Positions 1 through 21,039 of a stretch of 21,039 bases of DNA are shown piece after piece. A program made the position numbers and the translations under genes. Below the pieces are notes generated by a model. The model was given only the letters and a program-made list of their open reading frames with translations, did no database searches and had not been told where the DNA came from. How positions within the stretch are numbered: the first letter of the stretch is position 1; every line of letters begins with the position of its first letter. The stretch lies in IMG/VR virus record IMGVR_UViG_2718218398_000002. One strand, 5' to 3'. This stretch comes from a virus. Its lineage: Duplodnaviria > Heunggongvirae > Uroviricota > Caudoviricetes.

Positions 1-558
1 ATGAATACAGCTATAACTTTTTCTAACGAGTCACCAAAAGTCTTTTTCAAAGATGGTCGCCTGGTTACCACCTCTCAAGCTGTTGCCGACTACTTCGATA
101 AACAACATAAACACGTTTTAGCTAAGATTGACACACTCGACTGCTCTCCCGAATTTACATCAGCCAACTTTTCGGCCGATGTTCAGACTGTCGAAATTGG
201 CAACGGCGCAGAACGTGAATCACGATGCTACCTGATCACAAAAGACGGCTTCATGTTCCTCGTAATGGGATTTACTGGCAAAAAAGCAGCCAGACTAAAA
301 GAAGCTTACATTGAAAAATTTAACGCAATGGAAGAAGAACTCCACAAACGTCCTCCTGCAGCACAAAACTCCCCCGCCCCAAATAATGGATGCGCATTAC
401 TGATCCACTTCGATAAACACGGTCAGGTCGAGTTCACAGAAAAAGTCCCCGCCGATGCGATGGTATGCACGCTGGAACGGTTTAAATTTTATCTGGAGCA
501 ACATGGGTGGATCGTTGCCCGTAAAGAACAATTGGTGGAAAGGTTGATGCGGTTTTAA
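1..558 (+). CDS. Rha-family phage regulatory protein
   Basis: 185-aa ORF; the N-terminal half resembles phage Rha regulatory proteins as recalled from memory. Followed by a hairpin terminator at 568..597. The window begins exactly at its ATG. Confidence 0.6.
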   Translation: MNTAITFSNESPKVFFKDGRLVTTSQAVADYFDKQHKHVLAKIDTLDCSPEFTSANFSADVQTVEIGNGAERESRCYLITKDGFMFLVMGFTGKKAARLKEAYIEKFNAMEEELHKRPPAAQNSPAPNNGCALLIHFDKHGQVEFTEKVPADAMVCTLERFKFYLEQHGWIVARKEQLVERLMRF

Positions 559-567
559 TGAATGCAA

Positions 568-597
568 AACCCCGGATGATCACCGGGGTTAATTTTA
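568..597. terminator. bidirectional intrinsic terminator hairpin between rha and the minus-strand small ORF
   Basis: 8-bp perfect stem aaccccgg / ccggggtt around loop atgatca, followed by a U-rich tract on both strands. Confidence 0.5.
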
Positions 598-684
598 TCG
601 AGCGTGATTGCCGCTAATCGCCATCGCTCTGATTGAGCGTAAATCATTCAGGTTATTCAGTTCTTCCTTCTGCTCTCGCTGACG

Positions 685-831
685 TCAATAAATCCCATCA
701 TTGCGATCAACCTCATCCTTAACCATTGATGCGAGCAGTTCTTCCAGTTTCTGCGCTGACAGCTTTACCTGGTGATCTTCAGCATCTTCCCGGGCTATTG
801 TGGTTCGCGCAGTGGCTGATTTTGCTGACAT
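685..831 (-). CDS. hypothetical small charged protein (48 aa from the internal ATG)
   Basis: Listed in the ORF track as 685..966 (93 aa), but that form starts at a TTG lying inside the tfa-downstream hairpin. The internal-ATG product MSAKSATARTTIAREDAEDHQVKLSAQKLEELLASMVKDEVDRNDGIY has no clear SD and no recognisable family. Confidence 0.2.
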   Translation of the reverse strand: MSAKSATARTTIAREDAEDHQVKLSAQKLEELLASMVKDEVDRNDGIY

Positions 832-919
832 CACCACAGGGGGCAGACGGACCATTGAACCATGGCCTCCGGAACAAATAAGGGCAAAAATAACAACCAC
901 TATCGAAAGCTCACAAACT

Positions 920-1068
920 AACCGCAGCACGTTCCTGCATACGACGTGTCTGCGGCATAATCCCAATGATTACTCCCTGACAGGATTTGCAGGCCACTCA
1001 ATATCAGGTGCAGTTGATGTATCAACACGATTCAACAATACCCGATATTTATTCCATGCCTCCAGCAA
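920..1068. repeat. direct repeat copy A (tfa 3' end plus downstream hairpin)
   Basis: About 150 bp, roughly 85-90% identical to 1971..2118. Covers the last ~30 codons of the Tfa-like ORF and the hairpin ccgcagcacg...cgtgtctgcgg. Confidence 0.8.
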
Positions 1069-1239
1069 CGATCTTTCTTCCTCCGTTGCGATTTCCAGAT
1101 CTACAGCATCCTGCAGTGGCGCAATATACTCACTGAATTCCTGGATGTAGAACTGTGTGGTGACGGTCTTCCAGCCATTCGGCTCCTGCTGTATCGAAGC
1201 ATACCAGGCTATTTCAATATCGCTATGCTGCGGCAGCAT
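970..1239 (-). CDS. tail fiber assembly protein-like (Tfa C-terminal domain only)
   Basis: 89-aa ORF whose C-terminus ([44 protein letters not shown]) matches the conserved C-terminus of Tfa chaperones. It has an SD (AAGGGG) 4-5 nt before the ATG and an in-frame stop immediately upstream, so it is either a short standalone Tfa-like protein or a 5'-truncated remnant. Confidence 0.6.
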
Positions 1240-1266
1240 TTAACCCCTTGTAATTCATCGCCATAA

Positions 1267-1295
1267 TTGATTTAATTCACAAATAAAACTATAAC
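1267..1295 (+). promoter_or_regulatory. putative sigma70 promoter for the methyltransferase gene
   Basis: TTGATT (1267..1272), 17-bp spacer, TATAAC (1290..1295) in an AT-rich divergent intergenic region. The predicted transcription start falls at or after the first ATG, which favours the second ATG at 1308 as the real start. Confidence 0.35.
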
Positions 1296-1964
1296 ATGGT
1301 GAAATCAATGAAAAAAAACACAGATGATGGGGCTAAAATTTACACACCACTTACCCTAAAGCTTTATGACTGGTGGGTTTTGGGAGTATCAAATCGGCTT
1401 GCATGGGGATGTCCTACAAAGGAACACCTTCTTCCACACTTTCTGGAACATGTAGGTAACAACCATCTGGATATTGGTGTTGGAACTGGGTTTTACCTTA
1501 CTCACGTACCTGAGAGTAGTCTGATATCTTTAATGGATTTGAACGAAGCTAGCCTGAACGCGGCATCTACAAGGGCTGGGGAATCAAAAATTAAACATAA
1601 AATTAGCCATGATGTTTTTGAACCTTATCCCGCGGCGTTACATGGTCAATTTGATTCCATTTCCATGTTTTACCTTCTTCACTGCCTGCCTGGAAATATA
1701 TCTACAAAAAGCTGTGTAATACGCAATGCGGCGCAGGCCTTAACTGACGATGGAACTCTATACGGAGCCACAATTCTTGGCGATGGAGTTGTGCACAATA
1801 GCTTCGGTCAAAAACTGATGCGCATTTACAATCAGAAAGGCATCTTTTCAAACACAAAAGATTCCGAAGAAGGCTTAACACATATACTCTCAGAGCATTT
1901 CGAGAATGTTAAAACCAAGGTTCAAGGTACTGTAGTAATGTTTTCCGCTTCAGGGAAAAAATAG
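1296..1964 (+). CDS. class I SAM-dependent methyltransferase, substrate unknown (cargo gene)
   Basis: 222-aa ORF with Rossmann-fold methyltransferase motif I (HLDIGVGTGFY), an acidic residue after beta-2 (LISLMDLNEASL) and a later DDGTLYG motif. No DPPY/NPPY-type DNA-methyltransferase motif. Markedly more AT-rich than the tail genes. Alternative start at ATG 1308 (MKKNTDDG) has a better SD (GGTGA, 5-nt spacing). Confidence 0.6.
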   Translation: MVKSMKKNTDDGAKIYTPLTLKLYDWWVLGVSNRLAWGCPTKEHLLPHFLEHVGNNHLDIGVGTGFYLTHVPESSLISLMDLNEASLNAASTRAGESKIKHKISHDVFEPYPAALHGQFDSISMFYLLHCLPGNISTKSCVIRNAAQALTDDGTLYGATILGDGVVHNSFGQKLMRIYNQKGIFSNTKDSEEGLTHILSEHFENVKTKVQGTVVMFSASGKK

Positions 1965-1970
1965 CATCCA

Positions 1971-2118
1971 ACCGCAGCACGTTCTTGCTTAAGACGTGCT
2001 GCGGCATAATCCCAATGATTACTCCCTGACAGGGTTCGTAGGCCACTCAATATCAGGTGCAGTTGATGTATCAACACGGTTCAGTAACACCCGATACTTT
2101 TTCTAGGCTTCCACCACC
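1971..2118. repeat. direct repeat copy B (tfa 3' remnant plus hairpin)
   Basis: Partner of 920..1068. Contains the hairpin ccgcagcacgtcttaagcaagaacgtgctgcgg and encodes ...[27 protein letters not shown] on the minus strand. Confidence 0.8.
2019..2105 (-). pseudogene. tail fiber assembly gene 3' remnant fused downstream of the pin remnant
   Basis: Minus-strand translation [27 protein letters not shown] then stop, matching the last 27 residues of the Tfa-like ORF at 970..1239. No start codon; it is in frame with the pin remnant through stop codons. Confidence 0.65.
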
Positions 2119-2369
2119 AGCACGACAAGATGCCGCATACAGTGAACCAGTCAGTCCAGTTTTCAGACAACCAGTGCGTCACCTTTTTGAAGGCGCTTTA
2201 AAGCACGTTTTAATCCAGGTCGGCCTGTCCTTGTTCCGCTTAATTTATCTTCAAATATTTGTTCATATCCTGCACAAACAAGAGCGTTTCGTTGCAGATC
2301 TGTATTCTGGTCATTTGTTGATACCCTTACATAGCCAATCAGCACGCTGAATCTCCCGTCCAAAAGCAC
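2106..2369 (-). pseudogene. pin: DNA invertase (Pin/Gin/Hin/Cin serine recombinase family), N-terminal catalytic-domain remnant
   Basis: Translation VLIGYVRVSTNDQNTDLQRNALVCAGYEQIFEDKLSGTRTGRPGLKRALKRLQKGDALVV aligns with the Pin/Gin N-terminus including the catalytic Ser motif. Homology continues in frame through two nonsense substitutions (the W and R codons of the WKLDRLGR region both read TGA) and further missense changes, then is replaced by a tfa 3' end. The C-terminal HTH domain is absent. Confidence 0.8.
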
Positions 2370-2399
2370 AAATCATGCCATGCAGGCCAGAAACCGCCA

Positions 2400-2425
2400 T
2401 TATCTAAAACCTCGGTTTACAGGAA
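2400..2425. repeat. gix/pix-like 26-bp recombination site (left boundary of the invertible segment)
   Basis: TTATCTAAAACCTCGGTTTACAGGAA is a near match to the Gin/Pin crossover-site consensus as recalled. It sits just upstream of the pin remnant and is an inverted partner of 5482..5507. Confidence 0.7.
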
Positions 2426-2470
2426 ACGGTAAACAAGGCTGGTAACGCCGTTCAGCGTTCCGGCGATAAA

Positions 2471-3439
2471 ATGACCGGAGAACTGAAAATTGGCACGGTG
2501 AATGCGCTGCGAATTTTCAATGATGCCTTCGGTCTTATTTTCCGTCGTTCAGAAGATTTTCTTCATTTCATTCCGACGGCTGAAGGACAAGGCGAAAACG
2601 GTGATATCGGCCCATTAAGGCCATTCGCTATAAATCTGAGAACAGGTGCTATATCTGTCAGCCACGGGGCCAAAATTGATGGTGGGCTGGCGCTTGGTAC
2701 AGATAACGCACTGGGCGGTAATTCCATTACTCTCGGAGATAACGACACTGGTATTAAACAGGGCGGCGACGGTGTCCTTTTATTCTATTCAAATGGACAA
2801 CTGGCATTTGGGCTTCAACCCGCATCTGCTGATTTTTATAAGCGGGTTGCATATATTCATCAGGGAATAATTCCTGATGGAAGTGGCGCATTTGCAGACC
2901 AGTTGAATAATGCCACCGCGCCTTTTGTTCAGACGCAGTTTGCCTGGAATCCCACTCCTGGTGGTCTTTACGTGCCGATAGTTAAGGGCTTGTCCATTCG
3001 CAATGGACAGGGCTATCCCGGCGCGGTCAGCTTTGGGTATTTACTGACAGAACAGTATGGATTTCCGGTTCCATGTATTCATATGCGTGGCGATGGCGGT
3101 AATGATGCTTTATGGCAGTTTAACCCGAACGATAAATCCTTTATTTCACCGGGTGCTCTTATTGCGGGTGGCGTCCGTTATAACACCGATGGAAATATAT
3201 TTGGTGGGTGCTGGGGGTCAAACTTAAATGATTACCTGAATAGTTCTTTTATCAGAAATGTGCGTCTGGGAGGCAGACGTTCTGACACATTATATCGCGG
3301 AGGACTTTGCGAACCAGGTAATGGTCATGTGACAACAGGATTGCAAATTATTGGTGAGGTTGATGGAGATGACTGGATGGTGTCACGACCACTACAAAAA
3401 TACATTTCTGGTAACTGGTATAACGTTGAACAGGCATAG
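2471..3439 (+). CDS. alternative tail fiber C-terminal cassette (silent variable part, S'v-like)
   Basis: 322-aa ORF; the frame is open from 2408, directly after the gix-like site. Shares GGNSI(T/V)LGDNDTG and the C-terminal PxQKYIxGxWYNV motif with the C-terminus of the expressed fiber at 4549..7374 but differs elsewhere. No promoter or RBS of its own. Confidence 0.75.
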   Translation: MTGELKIGTVNALRIFNDAFGLIFRRSEDFLHFIPTAEGQGENGDIGPLRPFAINLRTGAISVSHGAKIDGGLALGTDNALGGNSITLGDNDTGIKQGGDGVLLFYSNGQLAFGLQPASADFYKRVAYIHQGIIPDGSGAFADQLNNATAPFVQTQFAWNPTPGGLYVPIVKGLSIRNGQGYPGAVSFGYLLTEQYGFPVPCIHMRGDGGNDALWQFNPNDKSFISPGALIAGGVRYNTDGNIFGGCWGSNLNDYLNSSFIRNVRLGGRRSDTLYRGGLCEPGNGHVTTGLQIIGEVDGDDWMVSRPLQKYISGNWYNVEQA

Positions 3440-3455
3440 CCATCAGGAGAATATA

Positions 3456-3982
3456 TGCAACATCTGAAAAATATTACCGCCGGAAACCCCAAAACCATTG
3501 AGCAGTATCAGCTTACGAAAAAAGCTGGCGTTATCTGGCTATATACAGAAGACGGTAAAAACTGGTATGACGAATTAAAAAAACTTTCAGGATGATACTT
3601 TAAAAATAGCTTATGACCAGAAGGGGATTATTCGTTGTATTGAGAAAGACGTATCAACACTTAACCCTGACGGGTTAAGTGTTGTTGAGTTACCGAATAT
3701 AACAGCCAACCGTCGCGCCGATATCTCGGGAAACTGGAAGTTTCTGGATGGTAAAGTAGTAAAGCGGGAATATACAAAACAGGAACTGCAACAGCAGGCA
3801 GAGTTACAAAAAGCCGCTTTGCTTTCCGAAGCGGAGTCTGTGATTCAACCGCTGGAACGTGCTGTCAGACTGAATATGGCAACTGATGAGGAACGCACAC
3901 GACTGGAATCATGGGAACGCTACAGCGTTATGGTCAGCCGTGTGGATACTGCAAAGCCTGAATGGCCACAGAAACCAGAATA
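3456..3982 (+). pseudogene. tail fiber assembly protein (alternative cassette tfa'), frameshifted
   Basis: SD AGGAG 6 nt before ATG 3456. N-terminus [41 protein letters not shown] parallels Tfa at 4014..4547. The frame breaks in an A7 run at 3577..3583 (one extra A relative to the in-frame reading) and homology continues in another frame to ...[13 protein letters not shown]. Confidence 0.75.
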
Positions 3983-3992
3983 ACAACAAATT

Positions 3993-4017
3993 AAGGCCCG
4001 TACGGGCCTTTTCTTAT
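3993..4017. terminator. hairpin between the convergent tfa' and tfa genes
   Basis: aaggcccg ta cgggcctt followed by TTTTCTT on the plus strand; it sits between the two convergent stop codons. Confidence 0.5.
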
Positions 4018-4547
4018 TCTGGTGGTTCCGGGAATGTTACAGGAAGAACCGAGGTATCAGTTGTCTCAACCTGTTGCACGTATCGCATCCAGTTCATCAG
4101 TTGCTGTCTGTCTGAATCAGTGATAATCCCCAAAGTAAGCTGTGTTTGCCAGAACTGCGTTTTTTCTCTGGCCTGCTGTAATAATATTTTTTTCTGGTTT
4201 TCCGTCTGTAGGCGCAACTCTTCTTCGGTATATACACGTTTAATGACTGCGCCATCTTTAAACATCCATTTACCTGAGTCGTCAGCACGCCGGTTGGCGG
4301 TAATATCAGGAATCTCAACGACGCTATAACCTTCAGGGTTAAGTGTGGAGGCATCTTTGGTTATGGCAACAATAATATTATTTTCATCGTAAACAATCTT
4401 TATGGTGTCTGGCTGAAAGTTTTTCACTTCCTCATACCAGTTTTTTCCGTCCTCAGAGTAAAGCCAGATAACTCCGTGTTTCTTTGTTAACTCATACTGT
4501 TCCAGTGTTTTAGCATTACCCGCTTTTATGTTCTTTAAGTGCATCAT
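4014..4547 (-). CDS. tfa: tail fiber assembly protein
   Basis: 177-aa intact ORF immediately downstream of the fiber gene, ending in the Tfa-type ...FPEPPE C-terminus and paralogous to the frameshifted tfa'. Confidence 0.85.
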
Positions 4548-4548
4548 A

Positions 4549-7374
4549 TTAAACGCTCGCTACATTATACCAGGTGCCATTTATATACTTTTGAACGGGT
4601 CTGTAATAAACGCCCGCTATATTATCGGCAGAGTTAGACCCTGTATCCTGAACATTAATACCAGACAATACATGACCTGAAGGGCACTGGAAATTCCATG
4701 TTTGCCAGTTGTTCACTCCATAATATTGCTGTGAACCAAGTCGAACATCTTTCACATAACGGGAATCAAAGTTACCGTAATCCGAGGGGTTAACACGCCC
4801 TGTAATATTTATGGTTTTATTACTTTGAATGCTTCCGGAGACAAAGCGCATAACATGGACGTTATTAGCATAAACATCCAGATTACCATCGCCATTTTGT
4901 TTAAAGCCCGTGTCATTATCACCCAATACAATCGAATTACCGCCAAGAGCACTGGATGTTCCGATACCCAGTGCACCATTCAGTTGACCACCAGATAACG
5001 GCAGTGCACCAACATCTCCTGCTGAAGGCTTTCTGGTGGTGGTGTAAAATTCGGACCAGTCGGCTTCAAAACCATAACCATCACGGGCTGAACGATAAAA
5101 AATACCGCCATTTTTATAATTAATCCGAAACTGAGCTGCAGGACAACTTCCTTCTCCCATATAAAAATGAATAATTAACGTTGATGCACCACTAATAGTT
5201 GCGTTATAGGCTCCGCTACTCCAGTTCCATCCAACTGCTTTATCATTCGCAACGGTGCTTCCTGTTTTCCCTAAGGCAAACGCACCAACATGACTTGCTT
5301 TTAATGTGATATCGGAGGAACCATCAAAAGCCACATTGCTTATTTTCCTGGCAGTTTTTAATTTTGCAGCTGTAGAAGCATTGCCGGATAGTTCACCAGA
5401 AAGGCCACCGCTGAATGTTTGTCGATTAGTCCAGGTATTCGCTGTACTGAGTAACGGTATTTTCTCCCCGCTTGTGCCGAGTTCTCGTAAACCGAGGTAT
5501 TCGATAACGGCGGCAACGGTCGATTTCGCAAGAATATCCCGCCCAACTTTTGTCAGGGTTGCCAGACTGGCAACATCATTCCCCGTAAAATACGGAAACC
5601 TGTCTGCCGCAGTAGCAAGCCCGGCCAGCGCCGTCAGGGTGGCATCTTTCGGTTGCTTACCCGCAAGCGCGCTAGTCATGGTGGTCGCAAAATTCGGGTC
5701 GTTGCCCAACGCCGCAGCCAGCTCGTTCAGCGTATTCAGTGCGTCAGGCGACGAGTCCACGAGGGCAGCGATCGCAGCCATAACATAAGCCGTGCTTGCG
5801 ATTTGGGTATTATTCGTTCCCTGTCGCGCAGTTGGTGTTGTTGGCGTTCCGGTCAGTGCAGGACTATTTAAGGGCGCTTTCTTGTTCGTTTCACCCATTA
5901 CCGCCTTAACCGCTTTTGGCGTTGCCGCCAGTGACTCGGAAGTGCTGTTGGTCGCACTGCTGAGCTGTACTATCCCCTTTTTCGTCGTGCTCGCATCCTC
6001 AAGCGCCACGGCGGATGCAATATCCTCTGCCCGTTTTGCCGCTGTCTCGGCGCGCGTTGCCGCGGATTCCGCCGTACTTTTGCTCTGAGCTGCCGCCGTC
6101 GCACTGCCAGCTGCCTCTGTCGCCTTCGTGGATGCCGTCGTGGCGCTGCCCTTTGCTGCTGACGCCTGTCTGGTCGCCTCATCTTTTGAAGCAGACGCAG
6201 ATGATGCCGATGACGCCGCTGAACTGGCTGACGATGCGGCTGCCGCCTTAGAGGAAGCAGCATTGTCTGCTGAAGTCTTTGCATTTGTTTCAGAGGTTTT
6301 TGCTGCAGAAGCAGACCTCGCTGCTGCAGTGGCTTGCTCAGTGGCTTTGCCAGCCTTCGTTGTGGCTGTTGAAGCGGATGATGCGGCGCTTTCTGCCGAT
6401 TTTCCGGCGGCGGTGGCACTGGCTGAGGCCTGCCCGGCACTTGTTGACGCGGCACTGGCAGATAATGCAGCCGCTGTTTTTGAACCTGCCGCAGCTGAGG
6501 CGCTCTGTCCCGCTGCTGTTTCAGAAGACTTAGCGTTCGTCTCGGACGTTTTTGCCGCCTTCGCGGAATTTCCTGCCGCCGTTGCCGAGGAAGCTGCACT
6601 ACTGGCACTTGATGATGCATTCGTTTCTGAAGATTTCGCTGCCTCTTTTGAGGCCGCCGCACCCCGTGCCGAGGTGGCAGCTTCTGACGCCTTCGTGGTC
6701 GCTGTGGATGCAGAAGTGGCTGCCGATTTTTGTGATGCTGCGGCATTCGTTTCTGACGTTTTCGCGGCACTGGCGCTGGTAGCTGCCGCGCTTTTTGATG
6801 ACTCTGCAGCAGCAGCACTTTTTGCTGCTTCACGGGCCTTTGTCGATGCCGTTCCTGCGCTGGAAGACGCTGACTGAGCCGACGACGCGGCCTGTCCGGC
6901 TGACGTGCTGGCGGCACGTGATGAGGCTGCAGCATCGGTTGCATGAGTTGCCGCCTCGCTGGCTGATGCACTGGCATCGCTGGCTGATTTTTTCGCGGCT
7001 GCCGTATTCTGTGCAACCGCGGAGGCGTTACGTGACACCTCTTCTACCATCTGCTCAAAGCGGCGCAGTGCCTCCGGTCGTACATCATCCTCCGTCATGG
7101 CACCGAGAAAATCATTCAGCGTACCTGGTCTGGAACCTTCATAGACGGTAATGGTCCCGGCATGTGAAGGCGGAAAACCTTCAACCAGCAGGGTGACGCT
7201 GTACTGACCATGCTCAACATCCATGCTGTAACGTCCGGCTTCATCCGGATTTTCAGAGGCCACCGTGTTCACCACCACCGTGCTGCTGGTTCGTCTGGCC
7301 TTCAGCACAATGGTGCAGTTCTGTACTGGTTTTCCTGTGCCATCTTTAAGCACGCCAGAAATTTTTACTGTCAT
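4549..7374 (-). CDS. stf: side tail fiber protein, lambda Stf-like N-terminus with an invertible-cassette C-terminus
   Basis: 941-aa intact ORF with RBS GGTGGA. N-terminus [26 protein letters not shown]... and the long Ala/Ser/Thr-rich repeat region resemble lambda Stf as recalled. The C-terminal ~316 aa lie inside the invertible segment and end in [18 protein letters not shown]. Confidence 0.9.
5482..5507. repeat. gix/pix-like 26-bp recombination site inside stf (right boundary of the invertible segment)
   Basis: TTCTCGTAAACCGAGGTATTCGATAA matches the reverse complement of the 2400..2425 site at 22 of 26 positions with an identical central AAACCGAGGT core. It encodes ...[11 protein letters not shown]... 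at the constant/variable junction of the fiber. Confidence 0.65.
5990..7010 (-). repeat. imperfect tandem repeats encoding the Ala/Ser/Thr-rich low-complexity region of the fiber
   Basis: Repeated peptide units such as [10 protein letters not shown] and [21 protein letters not shown]-rich and repetitive DNA that also produces long spurious ORFs in other frames (5970..7016 minus, 6128..6877 plus). Confidence 0.7.
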
Positions 7375-7388
7375 ACTTTTCCACCAAT

Positions 7389-7420
7389 AAAAAAAGCCCG
7401 CAGCAGTGACGCCACGGGCT
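7389..7420 (-). terminator. intrinsic terminator downstream of lom
   Basis: Stem agcccg...cgggct followed on the minus strand by a U7 tract; located between the lom stop and the stf RBS. Confidence 0.5.
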
Positions 7421-7520
7421 TCAGGACAGTGTAACTTTACGTTTCCTCAAACGCAGTTCACCCCATAAGGTGGATGAACCTGCGTATCATAACAATATTT
7501 ACAGAAGATAAATCGGCGTC

Positions 7521-7750
7521 TGTTGTCAGAAACGGTATCCGATACCAACAATAAATGCATCCGTTCGCCAGTCGCCACTACCGGAACCTTCATAAGCAAG
7601 GTCAATGGTCACGGATTCGGTCGGGTTAAACTGCACGCCAGCCCCCCACGCCAGAGACGTGTTGCTGTGGCGACCGTCATCACTTCCGGTCAGCACATCG
7701 TGCGTTTTCCCCTTGTTGTCAGTTACGCGGAGATAATCCCCGGAGAAAGT
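7521..7750 (-). pseudogene. lom: lom (Ail/Lom-family outer membrane protein) 3' fragment, separated by the IS insertion
   Basis: Minus-strand translation ...SGDYLRVTDNKGKTHDVLTGSDDGRHSNTSLAWGAGVQFNPTESVTIDLAYEGSGSGDWRTDAFIVGIGYRF then stop, matching the lambda Lom C-terminus. Confidence 0.85.
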
Positions 7751-7836
7751 TGCGTATTACCGTGAAGGAGATCGGTGAGTAACATCGATGGAGATCGGTT
7801 CGTGTCACTTTCACAGAACCGTTTTTTAAATTACCT

Positions 7837-8586
7837 TCACTGATCTCCTTCGGTCAACGGAGATTGTATTTTCCGCATTGATTCTCCTTTAAGTTCGATC
7901 TTGATACTGCCATGAACCAGTCGATCTAGGATGGCATCCGCATGTGTGGAGTCTCCGATCATTTTGTACCAGTTTTCCACCGGCAACTGGCTCACTACGA
8001 TGATTGAGCCTCGTTGGTACATCAGATCCACTATTTCCAGCAGGTCGCTACGCTGTTCTGATGAGAGAGGTTCCAGCCCCCAGTCATCCAGAAGCAGCAG
8101 ATCGCTATTATTCAGCCTGGTCAAAAGTTTGCTGTATCTTCCATCAGCATGCCCCTGATAGCACTGTTCCATCAGCGCTTTAAGGCGATAATAGTAGACC
8201 TTGTATCCCTGTCGGCAGGCATTATGACCAAGTGCACATGCCAGGAACGTTTTACCGCTGCCGGTGGCCCCGGTCAGTAAAATATTTTGTTTCAGGGTTA
8301 ACCAGTTTCCCTGACTGAGTGAACGGATGAGGGCCCTGTCCAGCCCTCTATTGTTACGATAATCCAGCTTTGATAACTCAGCATTAAGTCTGAACCGTGC
8401 ATGTTTGATCAGACGCTCTGCCTTCCTGTTTTCACGGCAGGTTAGTTCTTCTGCTGTCAGTAATGACAGGCGTTCTTCGAAGCCCAGCTCCTGGTATGTG
8501 CCCGGTTGAGCAAGTTGCTTTTTAAGCGCATCACGGAAGCCGGTGAGTTTAAGTGCGGTCAGTTGTTCGTAAAGATGATTCATCAT
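7837..8586 (-). CDS. istB: IS21-family transposition helper ATPase IstB
   Basis: 249-aa ORF with a Walker A motif (LTGATGSGKTFLACALG) and Walker B (LLLLDDWG), typical of IstB. Confidence 0.85.
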   Translation of the reverse strand: MMNHLYEQLTALKLTGFRDALKKQLAQPGTYQELGFEERLSLLTAEELTCRENRKAERLIKHARFRLNAELSKLDYRNNRGLDRALIRSLSQGNWLTLKQNILLTGATGSGKTFLACALGHNACRQGYKVYYYRLKALMEQCYQGHADGRYSKLLTRLNNSDLLLLDDWGLEPLSSEQRSDLLEIVDLMYQRGSIIVVSQLPVENWYKMIGDSTHADAILDRLVHGSIKIELKGESMRKIQSPLTEGDQ

Positions 8587-8597
8587 TGGATCCCGTA

Positions 8598-10139
8598 TCA
8601 GTGGTAATACTCACTGCCGCGTACGTTTTCGTGTTCCATCGTGGATAACAGATCTGGTTTTGGATCCTGAACAGGTTGTTTATCCAGACCTTTTTCCAGG
8701 ATCGATTTAATACCTGACAGACGCCATACCTTTGTTTTCAGAGCTCTTGCACATGCTGCATTAAGTCTGGCTTTACTGTATTTTTTATGAAGGTTCAGGA
8801 GTCCAAGGCAGAAGCGATAGCTTTGTTCCGGATGTGGACGAGAGTTCAGTATATGAAGCACATAACTATGAGTTTCACTGCCTATGTGCCCCGCCCATTC
8901 CAGAAGACGCTCTGGCGTCCAGGTGGCATGCTGTCGATGAGCTTCAGGCATGTGCTCGTTGCGGGTACTGTAGCCATAAGTACGCTTGCGCGGGTGCACA
9001 GCAACCTCCTGCCCCTGATTGAAGAGTCTTACCAGTTCTCCGGAGATCCATGCTTCCAGTTGCTGGCCTAACAGCGAACATGGAACCGAGTAGTAATGTT
9101 TGTCGATTTCCACGTGGTAATCGGCATGAACTCTGACTTTCTTCACCAGGGTGTAACTGTAACTGGCTTCAGGAAGAGGCTTCAGTGCGGGTTTATCAAG
9201 CTGGATGAAGAGTTCTGCACGTGAATAACCCAACTTCTGCATTATTTTGTTATTCAGTCTTTCCAGCAACTCCCGAATGCGCTGATTAAGCGATGCAAGG
9301 CTGTAGAAGATCTCATGCCTGATTCGGGCCATGATCCAGCGTTCAACAACCTGAACGCCAACTTCAGCTTTGGCTTTATCTTTCGGTTTACGTGGCCGCG
9401 CAGGCAAAACTGCGACATTATAATGCTCAAGCATCTGCTGGTAGGTAGGGTTAACGTCAGGATCATACTTACATGCCCTGGATGTGGCGCTTTTCAGATT
9501 GTCCGGAACAACAAGTTCAGGAACGCCACCCAACCACTGGAAGCAGCGAACATGACTCATCACCCAGTCTTCAAGCTGCTGAGACCAGGTGGCCTCTGCC
9601 CATGTGTAACTTGATGCCCCGAGAACAGCTACGATGACCTGAGCAGTTCTTATTTCTCCGGTCTCAGGGTCGGTAACGCCAACGGTAGGTCCACAGTAAT
9701 CAACGAAAAGTTTTTCGCCAGCTTTATGTACCTGACGCATTGATGGTGAAGTGGTTTTGAGCTATTCACGGTACATCCGGCAGTAATGGTTATAGCTGTA
9801 AAAACCGCCTGGATTACGCTCACAGTATTCTTCCCAGAGTAGCTGCAGCGTCACGCATTTATTACGCAGTTCCCGGTGTACTGTAGCCCAGTCAGGCAGA
9901 GAGTGCTTCTTCATCTTAACCTGGGTCTGAAGGAACGCATGTTTTAGTTTTGTATCATCCCATCCTGTAGGTAAGGGCCACTGCTTTATGCCAAGTTGAG
10001 CCGCCCGATTAGCATATCTGGATACAACGGAAGGGGAGATTGCAAGACTACGACCAATTTGTCGATGGCTGAGTCCAACACCGTATTTAAGCCTAAGAAT
10101 TTCTTTAAGTTTTCTCATAGAAATTGGAACTGTTGGCAT
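8598..10139 (-). pseudogene. istA: IS21-family transposase IstA, interrupted by an in-frame TAG
   Basis: The N-terminal HTH ORF (9762..10139, 125 aa) and the DDE-domain ORF (8598..9740, 380 aa) are in the same frame, separated only by an amber codon at 9762..9764 (...[19 protein letters not shown]...). Confidence 0.65.
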
Positions 10140-10332
10140 AGGTATCCTTTACCGGAATGGCAAAAGATACAGATCAACACACCTGTGAAGTTCCAATAAC
10201 ATTGATGGAGATCACTGAATAACAAAATGAGTCAAAAGTGATCTCCATCGATGTTATTCAGCGATCTGTTCAAATGTTATTACCCGATCTCGATGGAAGT
10301 TATTGAGTGATCTCCTTTCATGAAAATACGCA

Positions 10333-10712
10333 AAAGTCGACACACGGCTGTAAGCCACACCCGCCATCGCATACGCGCTGAACCATTCATTCACGCGTAC
10401 AGACGGCCCCGCCATCACGCTGAACCAGCGGTTACGCACGGAATCTTCATGCCAGCGGGTATCGCTGTAGCGCGTTTTTTGCTCATCCTCAGCATTGGCA
10501 TAACTGAAGGACGTAATCAGCCCCAGCGCGTCCGTAAACTCATAACGGTATTTCACGTTAATCCCGTTCAGATCATCACTACCGGGAACGTTCGTCGAGG
10601 CATGGAGATACCCCGCGCTCAGCGTGGACTGATGTTCTGCTGCACTCGCTGGCGTAGCAGCGGCGACCTGCCAGACTACTGCGGACAAAATAACAGCACA
10701 TAATTTACGCAT
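10333..10712 (-). pseudogene. lom: lom 5' fragment (signal peptide and N-terminal beta-barrel portion)
   Basis: MRKLCAVILSAVVWQVAAATPASAAEHQSTLSAGYLHASTN...AYSRVSTF matches the lambda Lom N-terminus up to the IS junction. SD GAGAGG precedes the ATG. Confidence 0.85.
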
Positions 10713-10737
10713 AATTACCTCTCGCTTTTCTGCAATA

Positions 10738-10761
10738 AAAAAGGCGCCATTTCTGGCGCCC
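10738..10761 (-). terminator. intrinsic terminator between J and lom
   Basis: Perfect stem ggcgcc / ggcgcc around a 6-nt loop, followed on the minus strand by UUUUUUAUU. Confidence 0.6.
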
Positions 10762-10779
10762 GTATCTGGGTTATAAAAT

Positions 10780-13700
10780 TCAGCTAATCGTGATGCCTGC
10801 AGTGGCTTTCTTCATCACCACAACCAGCAAATCGCTGATACTTGCTGTGGGATACCAGTTATTTACCAGCCATGCTGACACCGAAAACTCCAGTGTCATG
10901 TGACCGTGACCGGCAGGCATATCAATAACACCACTGTAAATCAGCGTATTATCCAGCGCGGTACGGTTATAAATTTCAGCACCGTTTTTCCGCACTATCA
11001 GACGGCATGAGGAGTAAATATCAGTATGCTCTTTCTCATGTTTAGCGCCGCTGAATGCCACCGCCGGAATAACAATCTGCCGGTCAAACGGCTGATCGTC
11101 ATAAACCCTGACGGTAATGGTTCCTGATGGCCACCGCTCCGGTGCACGGGAGTCCCGGGGGAAAGCTTTGCCCACTGTTTTAACGAGATCGCCTTCAATC
11201 TGGTTCGCGGACAATTTTCCCAGAACCCGACAGTTCTCGTTAATCGTGACGTTGTTGAGCGTCCCGGAGTTCGCATTCACGTTACCGCTGATATCGGCAT
11301 TTTTCGCCGTCAGCCGCCCGTCCGGTGTCAGGGAAAATGCCGGAGGATTACCGCCGCTGGTAATGGTGGGAGCCGTCAGATATTTCAGGAACACTTCATT
11401 CATAAATATCTGATCGCCCTGACCAACAAACATCGGCTTTGTGTTGCCATTCGCAGGATTAATCATCGCAATCCTGTCTGCCGCCAGCAGCACCTGACTC
11501 TGCATTCCTGCTGGCGTATTCTCAATACCGGCACCGATACCCGCAATATAAAGGCGTCCGTCCTGCATCTGCTGCAGTTTCACGGCCCACATGCTGTTCA
11601 GGTTATTATTTGTATCAACCTGAACTTTCTGTATCTGCTGGATTGCCGCACTCTGATTTTCCAGTTTTTTATTGACGGTCTGCGTGATTTCATTGCTGAC
11701 ATTCGTAATGGACGTCCTGATTTCAGCCAGGTCCGGCGCAAGCTGACCGTTATCAATCTGCGTCCACAGCTCCTGGGCCAGATGTGTTTTCCCGATTTCT
11801 CCTTTGAAAAAATCCAGGTAACCTTCCGCATCATCGCTCGCCCGACCGACAGCCTCCACGAATGCCGATTTGCCAACAGTATTCACACTGCGGATATAAA
11901 AATAATAATCATGGCCCGGTTTGATATTGATACTGGCAGCTATCCAGTACAGCGCCGAGCCAAGATAGCGGGCTGCGGTTTCAACCTGCCTGATATCCGC
12001 AATCCGCTTTTCCGAGAACCAGAACTCAAACTGTACCGTCGGGTCATAAACGGCAAGATGTGGCGTTGCGGTTATCTGAAAATAGCCCGGCGTCAGCTCA
12101 ATCCGCGACGGTGCTGCCGGTGCGGCAATCCGGAAGGTGGTGGTGGCAGGTTCACCCTGCTGGCCATAGCTGTTTATCGCCCGCACCGTCAGGGTGTATT
12201 CCCCGAGCGGCAGGCCGCTGAAACGGTGCTCCGTGTCTGCGGTGATGGCGGTGGTCACCAGTCTGGCATCCGTTCCCTTACCACTGGTCAGGCGCAGACT
12301 GAAGCGCACACCCTTCACCACCCGCGGCGTGTCCATTTCGCCTGCGCCAGATACTGGCCGTCAGCTGCGCTCACCTCCACCGTCAGGTGCTGCACTGCCG
12401 GTGGGATGACGCTGTTCAGGGAACCTGACTGCGGCTCAAAGCGGGCACCGTTATCCACGATGGCTTCTTTTTCCGGTACGTGCTGCACCGCCGTGATGGC
12501 AAAGGTGCCGTCCGTGTTTTCCCGGATGGAGACACAGCGGAACAGGCGACGGCGCAGTGACGGCAGGGAGAGTCCCCCACACCCCGTATGTCTCCACACC
12601 ATCAGGCAGGGTACTGACCTGTATCCGGTCCGGCGCGGGGTGTGCGGTGATGTCCACACTCACCGGCTTACCGCTGCCGTTAATCAGGTTCACCGCCGAT
12701 GTACCTGTCTCCGGCAGGGTAACCTCACGGTCCAGCGTCAGGGTGCGGGTGGCAGCATCAATGGACAGGACACGTCCGCCGGTCAGGGTCCCGGCATAGT
12801 CATTATCACAGATTTCAATAATGTCACCGGGTGTGTGCCGCAGCCCCTGAGACCCGAGCGTGAAATCCACCGTCTGCGTTTCCAGCAGTTCGGTCTTTAT
12901 CACCCACAGTCCGGCACGGTGGGCCTGACCGCGGCTGGTACAGCCGAACGCGTCCATCTTCAGCAGGTTGCGTCCGTAGCGCAGTATGGCTTCCGGGTCT
13001 TCCACCAGTTCCGTGGAGGTCTGCCAGCCGTTCTGCGGGTCGGTGTAATTCACCTCCACCGCCGTGTGCCGGTCCTTCAGGGCACTGAAGCTGTAGCGGA
13101 ATCCCACGCCGTTATCATCCACCACCACATCGCTGTTGGTGTACGGCCACACCACATCCGACGGGCGGTCCTGAACGAACGTCAGCGTCTGACCGTTCCA
13201 TACCGGGCATACAGCGCATCGCAGAGCAGAAATCACTGAGAACGTCCCACGCCTTACGCTGTTGTGCCAGGTACGCATTAAAGGTCATCCGCGGCTCGGT
13301 CCCCCCGAAACCATCCGGGACCGTCTGGTCGCAGTACTGCCCGATGGCATACAGCGCCCACTTGTCCACATCCGCCGCCCCCAGACGTTTTTCCCATGCC
13401 GTAGCGCGGGTGAGTCAGCATGTCCCACAGACACCAGGCCGGGTTGTTGCTGTATGCCGGTTTCAGACTGCCGTCCCAGATACCACTATACGTGCGTTTT
13501 TCCGGGTCATAGTTTGACGGCACCTGGATGATGCGACCGCGGATATGGTAGTTCACCGTCATCTGCTGGCCGCCGAACTGCTCCGCATCCACCTGCAGCC
13601 CCACAATGGCCGTGTTCGGGTAGCACTGTTTCACATCGATGATTTCGGTGTATGACGACCACAGCGTCTTATTCTGCAGCTGGTCCGTGGTGCTGTCCGC

Positions 13701-14255
13701 CGTCTCCCTGACCATCCGGATGTTAAAGGGCCGGGGAGGCAGATTATCCAGAATCACCGAGGCCAGGAACTGTGAGGTGGTCTTGCCGTTAATGGTGACG
13801 TCCTTTTCTGTCACCCAGTTACCGTTACGCTGTAACTGAATCAGCAGGCGGACGGATGCCGGGTTACGGTCACCCTTTGAGGTGGTCTCCACCAGTGACT
13901 GCACCCCGAAGGTAACCCGCAGGCGGTCAATGTTCGCGGACGTAATGGTGCGCGTCACCGGTTTTGCCTTCGTCACTTCCACGCCCAGTCCGGTTTCAGC
14001 TCCGGAGGACTCAAAGCCTTCCGGTGGTGTCTGCTCCTGCTCCCCGGCGCGCCAGACCGCCGTCACACCGTGTATCACGGGATTGCCGTCCGTGTCCGTC
14101 AGTGGGGTTTTGTTCACCAGAATACTCTGCAGTCCCTTCACCGGACCTTCTATCGGTCCCTCACCAATCGCATCAATCACGCTCATCATCTGCGTGGATT
14201 TGAGATTATCCTTCGCCTCACGAGGCGTGTGTGCCTTACCGCCACCTTTTCCCAT
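10780..14255 (-). pseudogene. J: tail tip / host specificity protein J, broken by four single-base frameshifts
   Basis: Five consecutive minus-strand ORFs (13278..14255, 13115..13369, 12451..13278, 12315..12659, 10780..12336) are collinear with lambda J from its MGKG... N-terminus onward. Each junction is a 1-bp indel in a homopolymer (near 13387..13391, 13205..13207, 12573..12577 and 12337..12338). Confidence 0.85.
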
Positions 14256-14359
14256 ACAGCCTTCCCCTGAATAAATTAACCGCCACTTGCCATTCCGTAC
14301 AGAAGTCGGATATCCTTCGCCCGAAAAGCATGAAACACATTTCTGCCATGCTAAAGAGA

Positions 14360-14393
14360 AACCCCGGTATCAGCAGATACCGGGGTTTTCTTT
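14360..14393. terminator. strong hairpin inside the I-J intergenic insert
   Basis: Perfect 11-12-bp stem accccggtatc / gataccggggt with loop agca, followed by TTTTCTTTC on the plus strand and UUUCUCUUU on the minus strand. Confidence 0.45.
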
Positions 14394-14462
14394 CATGCCC
14401 ACCGATAATCCTGTTGGTTAAAACCGGGTAATGGCATAAAAATTTCTGAATATCTTCACATT

Positions 14463-14490
14463 TTCACACACTGACTGTGGCGCTTATAAT
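14463..14490 (+). promoter_or_regulatory. near-consensus sigma70 promoter, plus strand, antisense to the tail operon
   Basis: TTCACA (14463..14468), 16-bp spacer, TATAAT (14485..14490), with an AT-rich UP-like tract just upstream (14433..14460). Confidence 0.4.
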
Positions 14491-14496
14491 TTCGCT

Positions 14497-14594
14497 GCGT
14501 TAGTGTTTTTTTGCCCGAGTAACAAAAACAACTCCTTAACATTGATCTTCATTTGTCTGTCCCCGCAGCTCCGCGATCACTGCGGGATTTTTTT
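14497..14594 (+). ncRNA. candidate ~100-nt small RNA (promoter to terminator, no ORF)
   Basis: Lies between the predicted transcription start after the TATAAT box and the intrinsic terminator at 14562..14594. Contains no ATG with an SD. Confidence 0.25.
14562..14594 (+). terminator. intrinsic terminator, plus-strand orientation, abutting the I stop codon
   Basis: Stem cccgcag...ctgcggg followed by T7 (14588..14594). On the minus strand an A-run precedes the stem, so it is not a canonical terminator for gene I. Confidence 0.5.
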
Positions 14595-14599
14595 ATGTT

Positions 14600-15282
14600 T
14601 TATCCCTGTCGCCCGATAACCACGACCGTTCCGCCCCCGCCTTCATCACGGGTGCTGATGTCCTGGGATATACGGCGGGAGCCAACCAGCATTTCCCCGT
14701 AAGGCACCGGCATCGGGTTCCCCTGGGCAATCATGTTATCCAGCGAGGAAAAGTACGTGTTCTGTCTGCCGTTATCCGTTGCGCGGTAATCCGGTGTTTT
14801 TGCCTTCGGGGCCAGCATCTGGGCCACACCGCCCAGAATCATGCTGGCTCCAAGTGAAAACAGCATCGTGGTGGCAGAAAAACCACCGGGCTGCCAGGGC
14901 TGAACCCCATAACGCCATTGATGCCCCGGCAGTGAAGAAAGAGCCCACGATGGCTGCCGCCCCCAGGCACAATCTGCAGTCCACCCTTTCCGGCCCCGGC
15001 CAGTCGCGGCACAATATGGATGACCGTTCCCTCACCCAGCTGTTCGTGAAGACGGGCGTACACCGCCTCCGGTGCCGTGTCATAACCGGCAATACGTATC
15101 TGGTACCAGCCTTCGTTCATCTGACGGCGAAAGCCCGGCACCTGTAACGACAGCGCCCGGATGGCTTCCGCTGCCGTGTTCACATACAGGCTGAGGCGGC
15201 GGCCAAATCGTTGTAAATCCCCGTGAAGGCAGATGCGTGCCAGTGGCGGTGACGCCAGACAGAATGCGTTCGTCGTTGCCAT
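14600..15282 (-). pseudogene. I: tail assembly protein I, two frameshifts
   Basis: Three overlapping minus-strand ORFs (14839..15282, 14772..15092, 14600..14866) are collinear with lambda I (ARICLxGDLQRFGRR ... AAAIxGSFFTAGA ... LFSLGASMxLGGVAQMLAPKA ... NTYFSSLDNM). Confidence 0.8.
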
Positions 15283-15922
15283 TTTTCGGAATACCTCTCC
15301 CGTTTACTCAGTTGTTCAGGCAGATGGTGAAGCAGCTCACCGTTGCCGCAGTAAATGGCGGCATGGTTCGGTACCGAAGCACCAAAGCAGCACAGCAGAA
15401 TATCGCCCGCCTGTGCAGAGGACAGGGGCACCCGGTAAAAGCCGGTGACCGCCATATTGTCCAGGTAAAGGTTCTGACCGTTGCGCCACCAGTCATCCTC
15501 GCGATGAAATCCGGCATTTCAGTCCCCGCCAGATGATAAGCATCCCGGAACAGCGTGTAACAGTCCGTCACCCCGTGCTCAAAGCGCCGTCCTGTCAGAT
15601 GTGGCACACAGCGGAATTTGTGAATGTCACCCCGGCAGACCAGCCACCAGGGCAGTGCGCTTTTTATCTGCAGCCGCCGGTCAGCCTCGCTCAGCCAGGG
15701 CAGCCCACCGGGATGACTGTGGACCAGTGCCACAATCTCCCCCTGCATCTCTGCCCGCAGCCAGTCTTCCGGTGCGATACGAAAATACGCCTCCGGCTCT
15801 GCAGAAATATTCACACAAGGGATATACCACTCCCCCTCCGACGTGCTTATCACGAAGCCGCACGACTCCGCAGGCGCACACCGCCGGGCATGCGCCAGAA
15901 TCGCTGATTCAGTCTGTGTCAT
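15180..15922 (-). pseudogene. K: tail assembly protein K (MPN/JAMM plus NlpC/P60-like), one frameshift
   Basis: MTQTESAILAHARRCAPAESCGFVIS...HSHPGG...DCYTLFRDAYHLAG then a frame break (a single-base deletion near 15505, changing TTCC to TTC in the coding sense), continuing as ...VTGFYRVPLSSAQAGD...PNHAAIYCG... in the ORF 15180..15455. Overlaps the start of I by about 100 nt. Confidence 0.8.
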
Positions 15923-20793: not shown

Positions 20794-21039
20794 TCACCAT
20801 TGAGCACTTCCTGCCACAGATACCAGGCCTCTGCCGAAGGCTGATTCGCCTTCATACGACGACCGGTCTTTTTCTACAGCGACTTTAGAGCTGGTTTCTG
20901 GCGGTAGTTCCACCAGTTCGCGCAGATAGTTAGTCTGGGCGAGGTCCAGCTCCGTCCAGCCACCGCGTGGCAGACCTTTTGGCAGTGGGATATCACCGTA
21001 ACGAACGCGAATCAGGCGGCTCACCTGCACACCAACCGC
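20794..21039 (-). CDS. partial phage tail gene running off the window end (5' part of G interrupted by TGA, or 3' end of the preceding tail gene)
   Basis: The frame is open to the window edge (...[33 protein letters not shown]...GSAQW then stop). Its TGA stop is in the same frame as the G ORF start 9 codons downstream. Confidence 0.35.

Follow-up and report, generated by a model that had tools for sequence, protein, structure and literature searches.

A Mu G-segment-type tail-fibre cassette at the end of a lambda-like stf gene in the defective lambdoid prophage Phi4 of Escherichia coli ST131, probably inverted in trans

Invertible tail-fibre segments are a textbook route of host-range alternation in temperate phages. 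The locus considered here pairs such a segment with a truncated invertase gene, and the question it raises is whether the segment can still switch, and by what enzyme. The window, meaning the whole stretch of DNA analysed, comprises 21,039 nucleotides of the IMG/VR virus record IMGVR_UViG_2718218398_000002. Very probably, its cassette is of the Mu G-segment type, ends a lambda-like stf gene in the defective lambdoid prophage Phi4 of E. coli ST131, and is flipped in trans. The exact locus is already known, being the same as the Phi4 segment of strain EC958 (Forde et al., 2014, PLoS One 9:e104400; PMC4134206). That study described a 3106-bp segment, its sites and its truncated invertase (EC958_1582), and proposed in-trans inversion by the invertase of prophage Phi1.

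The features of the locus are collected in Table 1. Inside the segment, which measures 3108 bp in the window and 3107 bp in the reference genomes, two pairs of fibre tip and assembly chaperone are arranged as mirror images, with tip A and tfa on the minus strand and tip B and tfa′ on the plus strand, and both chaperones belong to the Caudo_TAP family. The hairpin between the two pairs may act as a terminator. The initial annotation had placed a silent tip and its tfa′ on the plus strand; both are there, but tfa′ is split into ORFs at 3455-3595 and 3819-3983. A list of indels against the JJ1886 genome shows an extra A at 3577, within a run of seven rather than six, which is probably a homopolymer sequencing error. 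Were the frameshift genuine, the chaperone would be missing from the flipped state. Tip A, which had been called the expressed copy, is so only in the sense of being assembled in frame, and lom, just upstream, is split by the IS element ISEc12.

Table 1. Features of the invertible tail-fibre locus (positions in the window).
Feature	Position	Strand	Remarks
Gin-type serine invertase remnant, codons 1-60, then TGG>TGA	2166..2345	-	Pfam Resolvase N-terminus only
Left crossover site, gix-like	2400..2425	+	Central dinucleotide 2412-2413; adjoins the invertase remnant
Tip B, silent C-terminal 342 aa, TAA stop before it	2408..3439	+	968-aa Stf after inversion
Invertible segment, core to core	2412..5495	.	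Inverted form collinear with EC958 Phi4
tfa′, for tip B	3455..3983	+	Split in the window; intact (175 aa) in reference genomes
Terminator-like hairpin	3993..4010	Readable on both strands	Consensus scan; between the converging tfa genes
tfa, tail fibre assembly chaperone for tip A, 177 aa	4014..4547	-	Pfam PF02413, E=6e-32
Tip A, variable C-terminal ~315 aa, now fused in frame (941-aa Stf)	4549..5495	-	
stf-internal crossover site	5482..5507	-	Central dinucleotide 5494-5495; encodes V-I-E-Y-L-G-L-R-E
Constant part of stf, Stf residues 1-626	5496..7374	-	Pfam PF08400, E=5e-70

The two 26-bp sites that bound the segment are inverted relative to each other. The left site reads TTATCTAAAACCTCGGTTTACAGGAA (halves TTATCTAAAACC-TC-GGTTTACAGGAA), and the stf-internal site, taken as its reverse complement, reads TTATCGAATACCTCGGTTTACGAGAA (halves TTATCGAATACC-TC-GGTTTACGAGAA). 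They are identical at 22 of 26 positions, including an unbroken block of 12 bases (positions 10-21) that contains the central TC/GA, and in the output of a repeat finder the inverted repeat is 32 nt long (2394-2425 vs 5482-5513), with 84% complementarity. When compared with Mu gix, read directly from AF083977, the left site matches at 25 and the internal site at 22 of 26 positions, so that the gix-like inverted pair with an identical core, as first annotated, is borne out. A pattern derived from Mu gix and allowing up to three mismatches finds these two sites and no others in the 21-kb window, and gives 0 matches in 100 shuffles of the window, with 0 expected by chance. In Table 3 of Forde et al. 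(2014), the left site corresponds to the half-sites of EC958 Phi4_3prime/5prime, and the internal site is identical at 26/26 to the printed Phi1_5prime site of EC958; exchanging half-sites between the two sites of the window gives precisely the published Phi4 sites. The initial annotation had classed the cassette as "Mu G-segment / e14 P-segment-type", and here only the first half stands, as the e14 pix site matches the left site at 17/26 and has the core TT/AA, not TC/GA. By their sequence, the crossover sites of the window are of the gix type and not of the pix type. Near 4039-4064, within the 3′ end of the tfa coding sequence, there is a partial third site that has 14 nt in common with the left site; aligned by hand to the 26-mer, its halves match at 4/12 and 7/12, and it was treated as a chance resemblance.

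Inverting 2412..5495 in silico replaces the 941-aa Stf by an in-frame Stf of 968 aa that bears the other tip. The residues at the junction are VIEYLGLRE in the assembled copy and, directly after a stop codon, NLGLQE in the silent copy. The claim that roughly 3.1 kb is bracketed by a crossover lying in frame within the fibre therefore holds, and the in-frame fusion on in-silico inversion, by which the initial annotation was to be judged, was obtained.

Both orientations are found in nature. Once inverted at 2412..5495, the window is collinear with EC958 Phi4 (1480500-1490289) at 99.97% over 9792 nt; relative to that reference it lies in the opposite orientation and carries the one extra A in tfa′. 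The inverted junction occurs in many ST131 genomes at 812/812 identity with full coverage. This 812-nt query returned 373 genomes, a count that was not used and is inflated because the near-identical invertase 5′ end of Phi1, together with tip A, could cover ~80% of the query. A more specific junction query of 1212 nt, which includes 912 nt of Phi4-specific flank with the dead invertase, identified 237 complete genomes in the flipped and 143 in the window orientation. Among four isolates of one patient, 26 core SNPs apart (PMC6692316), U12A has the window orientation and U13A, U14A, and U15A are flipped. These comparisons place the breakpoint among the 12 central bases that both sites share (26-mer positions 10-21) and resolve it no further. 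The invertibility claimed from the window sequence is thus seen in database genomes, where the breakpoint coincides with the core of the sites. Forde et al. (2014; PMC4134206) had also found both orientations in PacBio reads of one EC958 culture, and on examining the reads ruled out adapter and hairpin artefacts.

What remains of the invertase gene at the locus cannot account for this inversion. The remnant, on whose status as the cognate invertase the initial annotation is silent, has 60 codons and no helix-turn-helix domain, decays further down to about position 2110, and is fused to a 3′ fragment of tfa. A complete serine invertase does not adjoin the segment, and no intact invertase is encoded anywhere in the window. 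Inversion must therefore be catalysed in trans. An intact invertase (WP_000905061.1) is encoded in the P2-like prophage of EC958, which is in the flipped state, and in that of JJ1886, which has the window orientation. In Phi1 of EC958 this enzyme has 199 aa, its residues 1-60 are 92% identical to the remnant, and the 26-bp crossover sites of Phi1 are near-identical to those of the window. With an intact homologue elsewhere in the genomes of the lineage, the system is able to work in trans, although the locus is not self-sufficient. Judging by these similarities, the acting enzyme is most likely the intact invertase of the co-resident P2-like prophage (Phi1 in EC958).

The truncated gene may nevertheless retain a role in cis. 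The Fis sites of Mu are located within the gin coding region (PMC3378877; also the title of Kahmann, 1985, as given in another, citing paper). The remnant differs from Mu gin by few changes across the first ~185 nt of coding sequence, window positions 2155-2440 match Mu at 92% by BLAST, and a three-way DNA alignment of the remnant with the 5′ parts of Mu gixR-gin and of the Phi1 invertase gene has a mean column identity of 92%. The remnant probably still carries the recombinational enhancer, which may still work. Under the proposed mechanism, a Gin/Pin-family serine invertase would bind both inverted 26-bp sites and, together with Fis and the enhancer, would cut at the central TC/GA, rotate the strands and religate them, thereby flipping 3.1 kb. 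The 626 constant residues of Stf would then be joined either to tip A with tfa (941 aa) or to tip B with tfa′ (968 aa), and the enzyme supplied in trans would be the 199-aa Phi1 invertase with its near-identical crossover sites. Whichever tip is joined, a fibre may then be made.

Other explanations of the two orientations have to be weighed against site-specific inversion in trans. The inverted repeats might recombine through RecA-dependent homologous exchange, and the placing of the breakpoint only to within 12 identical bases would fit such exchange as well. The length of the identity, however, 12 bases (or 32 nt at 84%), is far short of that needed for efficient RecA recombination, and the segment contains a longer inverted repeat (130 nt, 71%, 3453-3582 vs 4420-4549) that is not used. 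The sites also match a characterised invertase site at 25/26 and 22/26 with agreeing core dinucleotides, and the same genomes encode an intact, closely related invertase whose own sites are near-identical, all of which makes RecA a very unlikely agent. More doubtful still is a fossil origin, in which sites and cassettes are relics and inversion ceased when the invertase was truncated. The reduction of that gene to 60 codons, its nonsense codon, its fusion to a tfa fragment and the decay of the rest of the prophage are what such a history would leave behind, yet both orientations occur at 100% identity among near-clonal genomes (237 vs 143), orientation differs among the isolates of one patient, and the presence of both within a single EC958 culture (Forde et al., 2014) already contradicts it.

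The alternative orientation could also be the product of misassembly of a repeat-bounded region. Assembly quality does vary, and the window itself has numerous indels in homopolymers and an unusual terminal junction, but hundreds of independent complete long-read assemblies show just two configurations with exact breakpoints, and EC958 reads spanning both junctions in both orientations were already reported with the read check of Forde et al. (2014). An artefact on this scale has next to no probability. A last reading extends inversion in trans rather than replacing it, in that one invertase of a P2-like prophage would flip the cassettes of two unrelated prophages in one cell, and the orphan lambda-type cassette would be a maintained reservoir of tips. 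Instead of decaying as a relic, the cassette would be a source of tips for helper or co-resident phages. Forde et al. (2014) had already proposed action across prophages, and only the selected, maintained reservoir is new; intact ORFs are no evidence of selection because the ST131 clone is too young, and we consider this extension unlikely.

With inversion in trans as the preferred reading, the locus can be set beside known systems. The constant part of Stf is 77% identical to lambda Orf-401 over the N-terminal 352 aa and 71% identical to lambda Orf-314 over the first 66 aa of the latter, and the resemblance to lambda extends as far as YLG, the crossover point, and no further. This agrees with the annotation of a lambda Stf-like constant N-terminus, and the PF08400 N-terminal domain, the homology to lambda Stf and the position after J-lom and before tfa place the protein in the lambda Stf family. 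Lambda Stf (orf-401/orf-314) and Tfa share the gene order J-lom-stf-tfa with the window, but lambda has a single fixed tip without crossover sites and without an invertase. In the fibre of the window, no Pfam match to Tail Collar (PF07484) or Phage_fibre_2 (PF03406) was obtained at E<=0.01, and for that reason the generic domain description in the figure legend of Forde et al. (2014) does not fit Phi4 literally.

The Mu G segment (gix, Gin, S/U, S′/U′) has the same core dinucleotide and mirror-image layout as the window, its invertase gene lies just outside the segment where the window has the remnant, and the window tips match in part the sequences of the solved structures of Mu S (5YVQ) and S′ (8JU3). 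It differs in that the constant part in the window is that of lambda Stf, a siphovirus side fibre, and not the N-terminus of Mu S, that the invertase of the window is dead, and that the tips are mosaic and not Mu's own. The e14 P segment of E. coli K-12 (pix, PinE) has the same architecture and is likewise found in a defective prophage, and PinE is 77% identical to the 60 residues of the remnant; its constant part, however, sits in a P2/Mu-like baseplate module (jayE, ymfQ), whereas that of the window follows lambda J-lom. Phi1 of EC958 and JJ1886 is a myovirus with a P2-type constant part, unlike the window, and the partner tip in its segment, which spans 2.8 kb, is a different one. The Mu-like Yersinia phage vB_YpM_3, an intact Muvirus, has an invertase of its own, again unlike the window, and the form corresponding to tip B is the assembled fibre there but silent here; the second tip in the G segments of vB_YpM_3 and vB_YpM_23 has only 40% local identity to tip A.

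The locus is a clear example of a cassette that has lost its own invertase and kept its switching. For the scanning of genomes, a dead invertase in cis does not equal a dead switch, and the two orientations can split assemblies and confuse comparisons. Current understanding is unchanged, since both the locus and this reading of it have been in print since 2014. The JJ1886 annotation gives the K-like C40 peptidase gene as partial, with its N-terminus missing, and ISEcp1-blaCTX-M-15 interrupts the tape-measure gene there. With lom split in the window as well, the prophage looks defective, so that switching may be without effect on the phenotype.

Comparison shows the two tips to be divergent, as had been annotated, but they share more than the two motifs first noted: one block of 50 aa has 60% identity, and the last ~98 aa at the C-terminus have 31%. 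Tip A shares 98% identity with the tip that is silent in the EC958 P2-like prophage Phi1 and ~82% with the fibre tips of P2-like phages, and a 93-aa block within it matches Mu S′ and PDB 8JU3 at 85% identity. Its chaperone is 69% identical to Mu U′ and 94% identical to U′ of vB_YpM_3. Tip B, which RefSeq labels "hypothetical protein", matches the assembled S tip of vB_YpM_3 and vB_YpM_23 along its entire length at 99.7% identity and shows a weak, mosaic resemblance to Mu S (PDB 5YVQ), and the intact tfa′ of JJ1886 is 99% identical to U of vB_YpM_3. The closest relatives of the tips thus differ, P2-like for tip A and a Mu-like Yersinia phage for tip B, which provides leads to receptors and no more; we infer that the two tips bind different receptors. 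Infection by vB_YpM_3 requires the rough LPS core of Y. pestis (PMC10434027), and by analogy this requirement may serve as a lead to the target of tip B.

The invertible tail-fibre switch that the initial annotation recognized at 2400-5507 is genuine and was interpreted correctly, and its mechanism is clear. It belongs to a classic family, and the exact locus has already been published. Switches of this kind have been on record since the 1980s, examples being the G segment of Mu, the C segment of P1 and the P segment of e14 (Sandmeier, 1994, as cited in PMC4134206), and the same locus was described as prophage Phi4 of E. coli EC958 (Forde et al., 2014; PMC4134206). That study reported an invertible segment of 3106 bp, with crossover sites TTATCGAATACCTC/GGTTTACAGGAA and TTATCTAAAACCTC/GGTTTACGAGAA, as well as alternative-orientation contigs from PacBio reads of one culture (PMC4134206). 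The published sites are recombinant combinations of the half-sites in the window. The present analysis adds only a tally of orientations in complete genomes, direct comparisons with gix and pix, the mosaic origin of the cassette, and the contrast between a dead cis invertase and a retained presumed enhancer region.

The two 26-mers (2400-2425 and 5482-5507) form the inverted pair originally claimed, matching at 22 of 26 positions with positions 10-21, including the central TC/GA, identical; in the output of a repeat finder, the inverted repeat spans 32 nt (84%). With up to three mismatches allowed, a search pattern based on Mu gix found only these two sites in the 21-kb window and none in shuffled sequences. 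Both Mu sites, read directly from AF083977, are TTATCCAAAACCTCGGTTTACAGGAA. The window sites are gix-type as judged by alignment, since the left matches Mu gix at 25/26 positions and the right at 22/26 with the same core, whereas the K-12 e14 pix sites match at only 17/26 and have a TT/AA core; similarity to characterized invertase sites is thus present. Four positions (6, 9, 22, and 23) distinguish the window sites from each other, and since the recombinant junctions show no mismatch, the aligned sequences indicate that exchange must fall between site positions 9 and 22, which fits cleavage at the central dinucleotide.

Four coding units lie between the sites, as two fibre tips each with a chaperone gene (table). 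Inverting 2412..5495 in silico yields an uninterrupted, in-frame protein of 968 aa with the junction ...VIEYLGLQETVNKAGN..., as the proposed tip swap had predicted. The constant part of Stf bears PF08400 and shares 77% identity with lambda Orf-401 over 352 aa, and 71% with residues 1-66 of Orf-314. This lambda similarity ends at ...EYLG, which is the crossover point. The original description, in which a G-type cassette is grafted onto a side fibre of lambda type, is accurate. Calling tip A "expressed" would mean that it is assembled in frame, and no more than that.

Features of the tail-fibre region and neighbouring genes (window coordinates)
Feature	Position	Strand	Remark
DUF4376 tail-fibre fragment	about 595-873		
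Direct repeats, 148 bp	920-1067; 1970-2116		
Class I SAM-dependent methyltransferase gene	1296-1964	+	PHROG 2132, unknown function
ORF with Resolvase domain	2163-2369	-	N-terminal part only
Tip A	between sites	-	last ~315 codons of 941-aa fibre gene
tfa	between sites	-	Caudo_TAP chaperone gene, 177 aa
Terminator-like hairpin	between the converging chaperone genes		readable on both strands
tfa'	between sites	+	second chaperone gene
Tip B	between sites	+	342-codon open frame directly after TAA stop
Strong terminator-like hairpin	7393-7422	-	13 pairs + T-run; between lom remnant and stf start codon at 7374
lom fragments flanking ISEc12	about 7526-7747; 10254-10712		
ISEc12 (IS21 family), in lom	~7750-10250		istB 7837-8586, istA 8598-10139
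J, three ORFs	10780-12336; 12451-13278; 13278-14255		
Homopolymer indels vs JJ1886, e.g.	3577, 7822, 12332, 12574, 13205, 13388, 14426, 14443, 14888, 14966, 15506		

Both orientations occur in nature. The unmodified window aligns to the EC958 chromosome in three pieces, with the middle piece reversed, and the window inverted in silico (1-9792) is collinear with it at 99.97%. Many ST131 genomes match an 812-nt inverted junction over its full length at 100% identity. Since a similar P2-like prophage could cover ~80% of this query, the search was repeated with a query of 1212 nt that included 912 nt of locus-specific flank; the flipped state was present in 237 complete genomes and that of the window in 143. 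Among serial isolates from one patient, 26 core SNPs apart (PMC6692316), U12A has the orientation of the window and U13A, U14A, and U15A are flipped. One 5.45-Mb genome (SCAID WND1-2021, NZ_CP082831.1) carries the window's orientation at 2.24 Mb and the 812-nt inverted junction at 4.77 Mb; either the prophage region may be present twice, once in each state, or the assembly may contain a duplication such as Forde et al. caution against.

By its sequence, the locus is incapable of inverting itself, because its invertase is reduced to 60 real codons (2166-2345), followed by TGG to TGA at codon 61 and a few decayed codons before the frame enters the 3' end of a tfa gene. The encoded residues share 92% identity with the first 60 of an intact invertase of 199 aa, and 77% with PinE. 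The truncated gene was previously reported as EC958_1582, and the invertase of Phi1, a P2-like prophage found in this lineage, was proposed to act in trans (Forde et al., 2014; PMC4134206). The intact homologue, WP_000905061.1, is encoded in the P2-like prophage of both EC958 (flipped) and JJ1886 (window orientation), and is the best candidate for the trans-acting enzyme, since this prophage has crossover sites nearly identical to the pair in the window. The remnant and adjoining site are 92% identical at the DNA level to the gixR-gin 5' region of Mu, and a three-way alignment with Mu and Phi1 has few changes over the first ~185 nt of the remnant coding sequence. The Fis-binding enhancer of Mu is located within the gin coding region (PMC3378877; Kahmann et al., 1985, as cited in PMC10434027), and the cis-acting enhancer is probably still present in the remnant.

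Sequence relationships mark the cassette as a mosaic. Tip B, tfa', and tfa have counterparts in the G segment of vB_YpM_3, a Mu-like Yersinia phage, at 99.7, 99, and 94% identity, respectively. Tip A instead resembles the silent tip of Phi1 (98% identity) and the fibre tips of P2-like phages (about 82%), and one block of 93 aa within it shares 85% identity with Mu S'. Common to both tips are a block of 50 aa (60% identity) and the last ~100 aa, which are weakly similar; it is this C-terminal stretch that matches the C-terminus of Mu S bound to its chaperone in 5YVQ. The phage vB_YpM_3, in which tip B is the assembled form, requires the rough LPS core of Y. pestis (PMC10434027), a hint as to what tip B may recognize. 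Given the 98% match between tip A and the Phi1 silent tip, the two prophages could exchange tips by homologous recombination. The P2-like prophage (EC958 953000-965000; JJ1886 950000-970000) has its own 2.8-kb invertible segment, and one tfa in the JJ1886 copy is annotated as frameshifted.

In the window, an extra A in the A-run at 3577 splits tfa', which is annotated as intact (175 aa) in the two RefSeq genomes inspected (JJ1886 and EC958). Over 15.8 kb (1-15789), about 14 single-base homopolymer indels separate the window from JJ1886 and cut J into three ORFs; this pattern, typical of sequencing error, suggests an error-prone long-read assembly and not real decay. The last 199 bases (20841-21039) are an rluB fragment, 99.5% identical to JJ1886, fused directly to a phage tail assembly chaperone gene, a junction absent from all 5,426 complete E. 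coli genomes searched. The rluB gene of JJ1886 is located past the trp operon, at the opposite flank of the prophage. The window junction may have arisen by misassembly or at a chimeric contig end, or else mark a tandem duplication or a rearrangement specific to the strain.

Window 900-7500 is identical but for one base to many ST131 chromosomes, e.g., JJ1886, JJ1887, and 4/0. In JJ1886, trpA and a truncated ompW adjoin the region, and the right end of the lambdoid prophage reads ...H-M-L-K-I-J-lom-stf-tfa, then a jumble of fragments, the methyltransferase gene and a Rha regulator gene. Further tail genes of this JJ1886 prophage are damaged; the ISEcp1-blaCTX-M-15 element interrupting its tape-measure gene is absent from the window at ~18185. 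ISEc12 splits lom just upstream of stf, and the hairpin following the lom remnant would, if functional, restrict read-through into stf. The window istA carries a C>T at 9763 that creates a stop codon, and the lom/IS boundary (7707-7747) holds a 40-bp patch with ~19 substitutions and a 7-nt gap relative to JJ1886, between identical flanks. The two direct repeats flanking the methyltransferase gene are 88.5% identical and correspond to tfa 3' ends, an arrangement that suggests that this gene is cargo taken up via recombination between tail-fibre-assembly genes.
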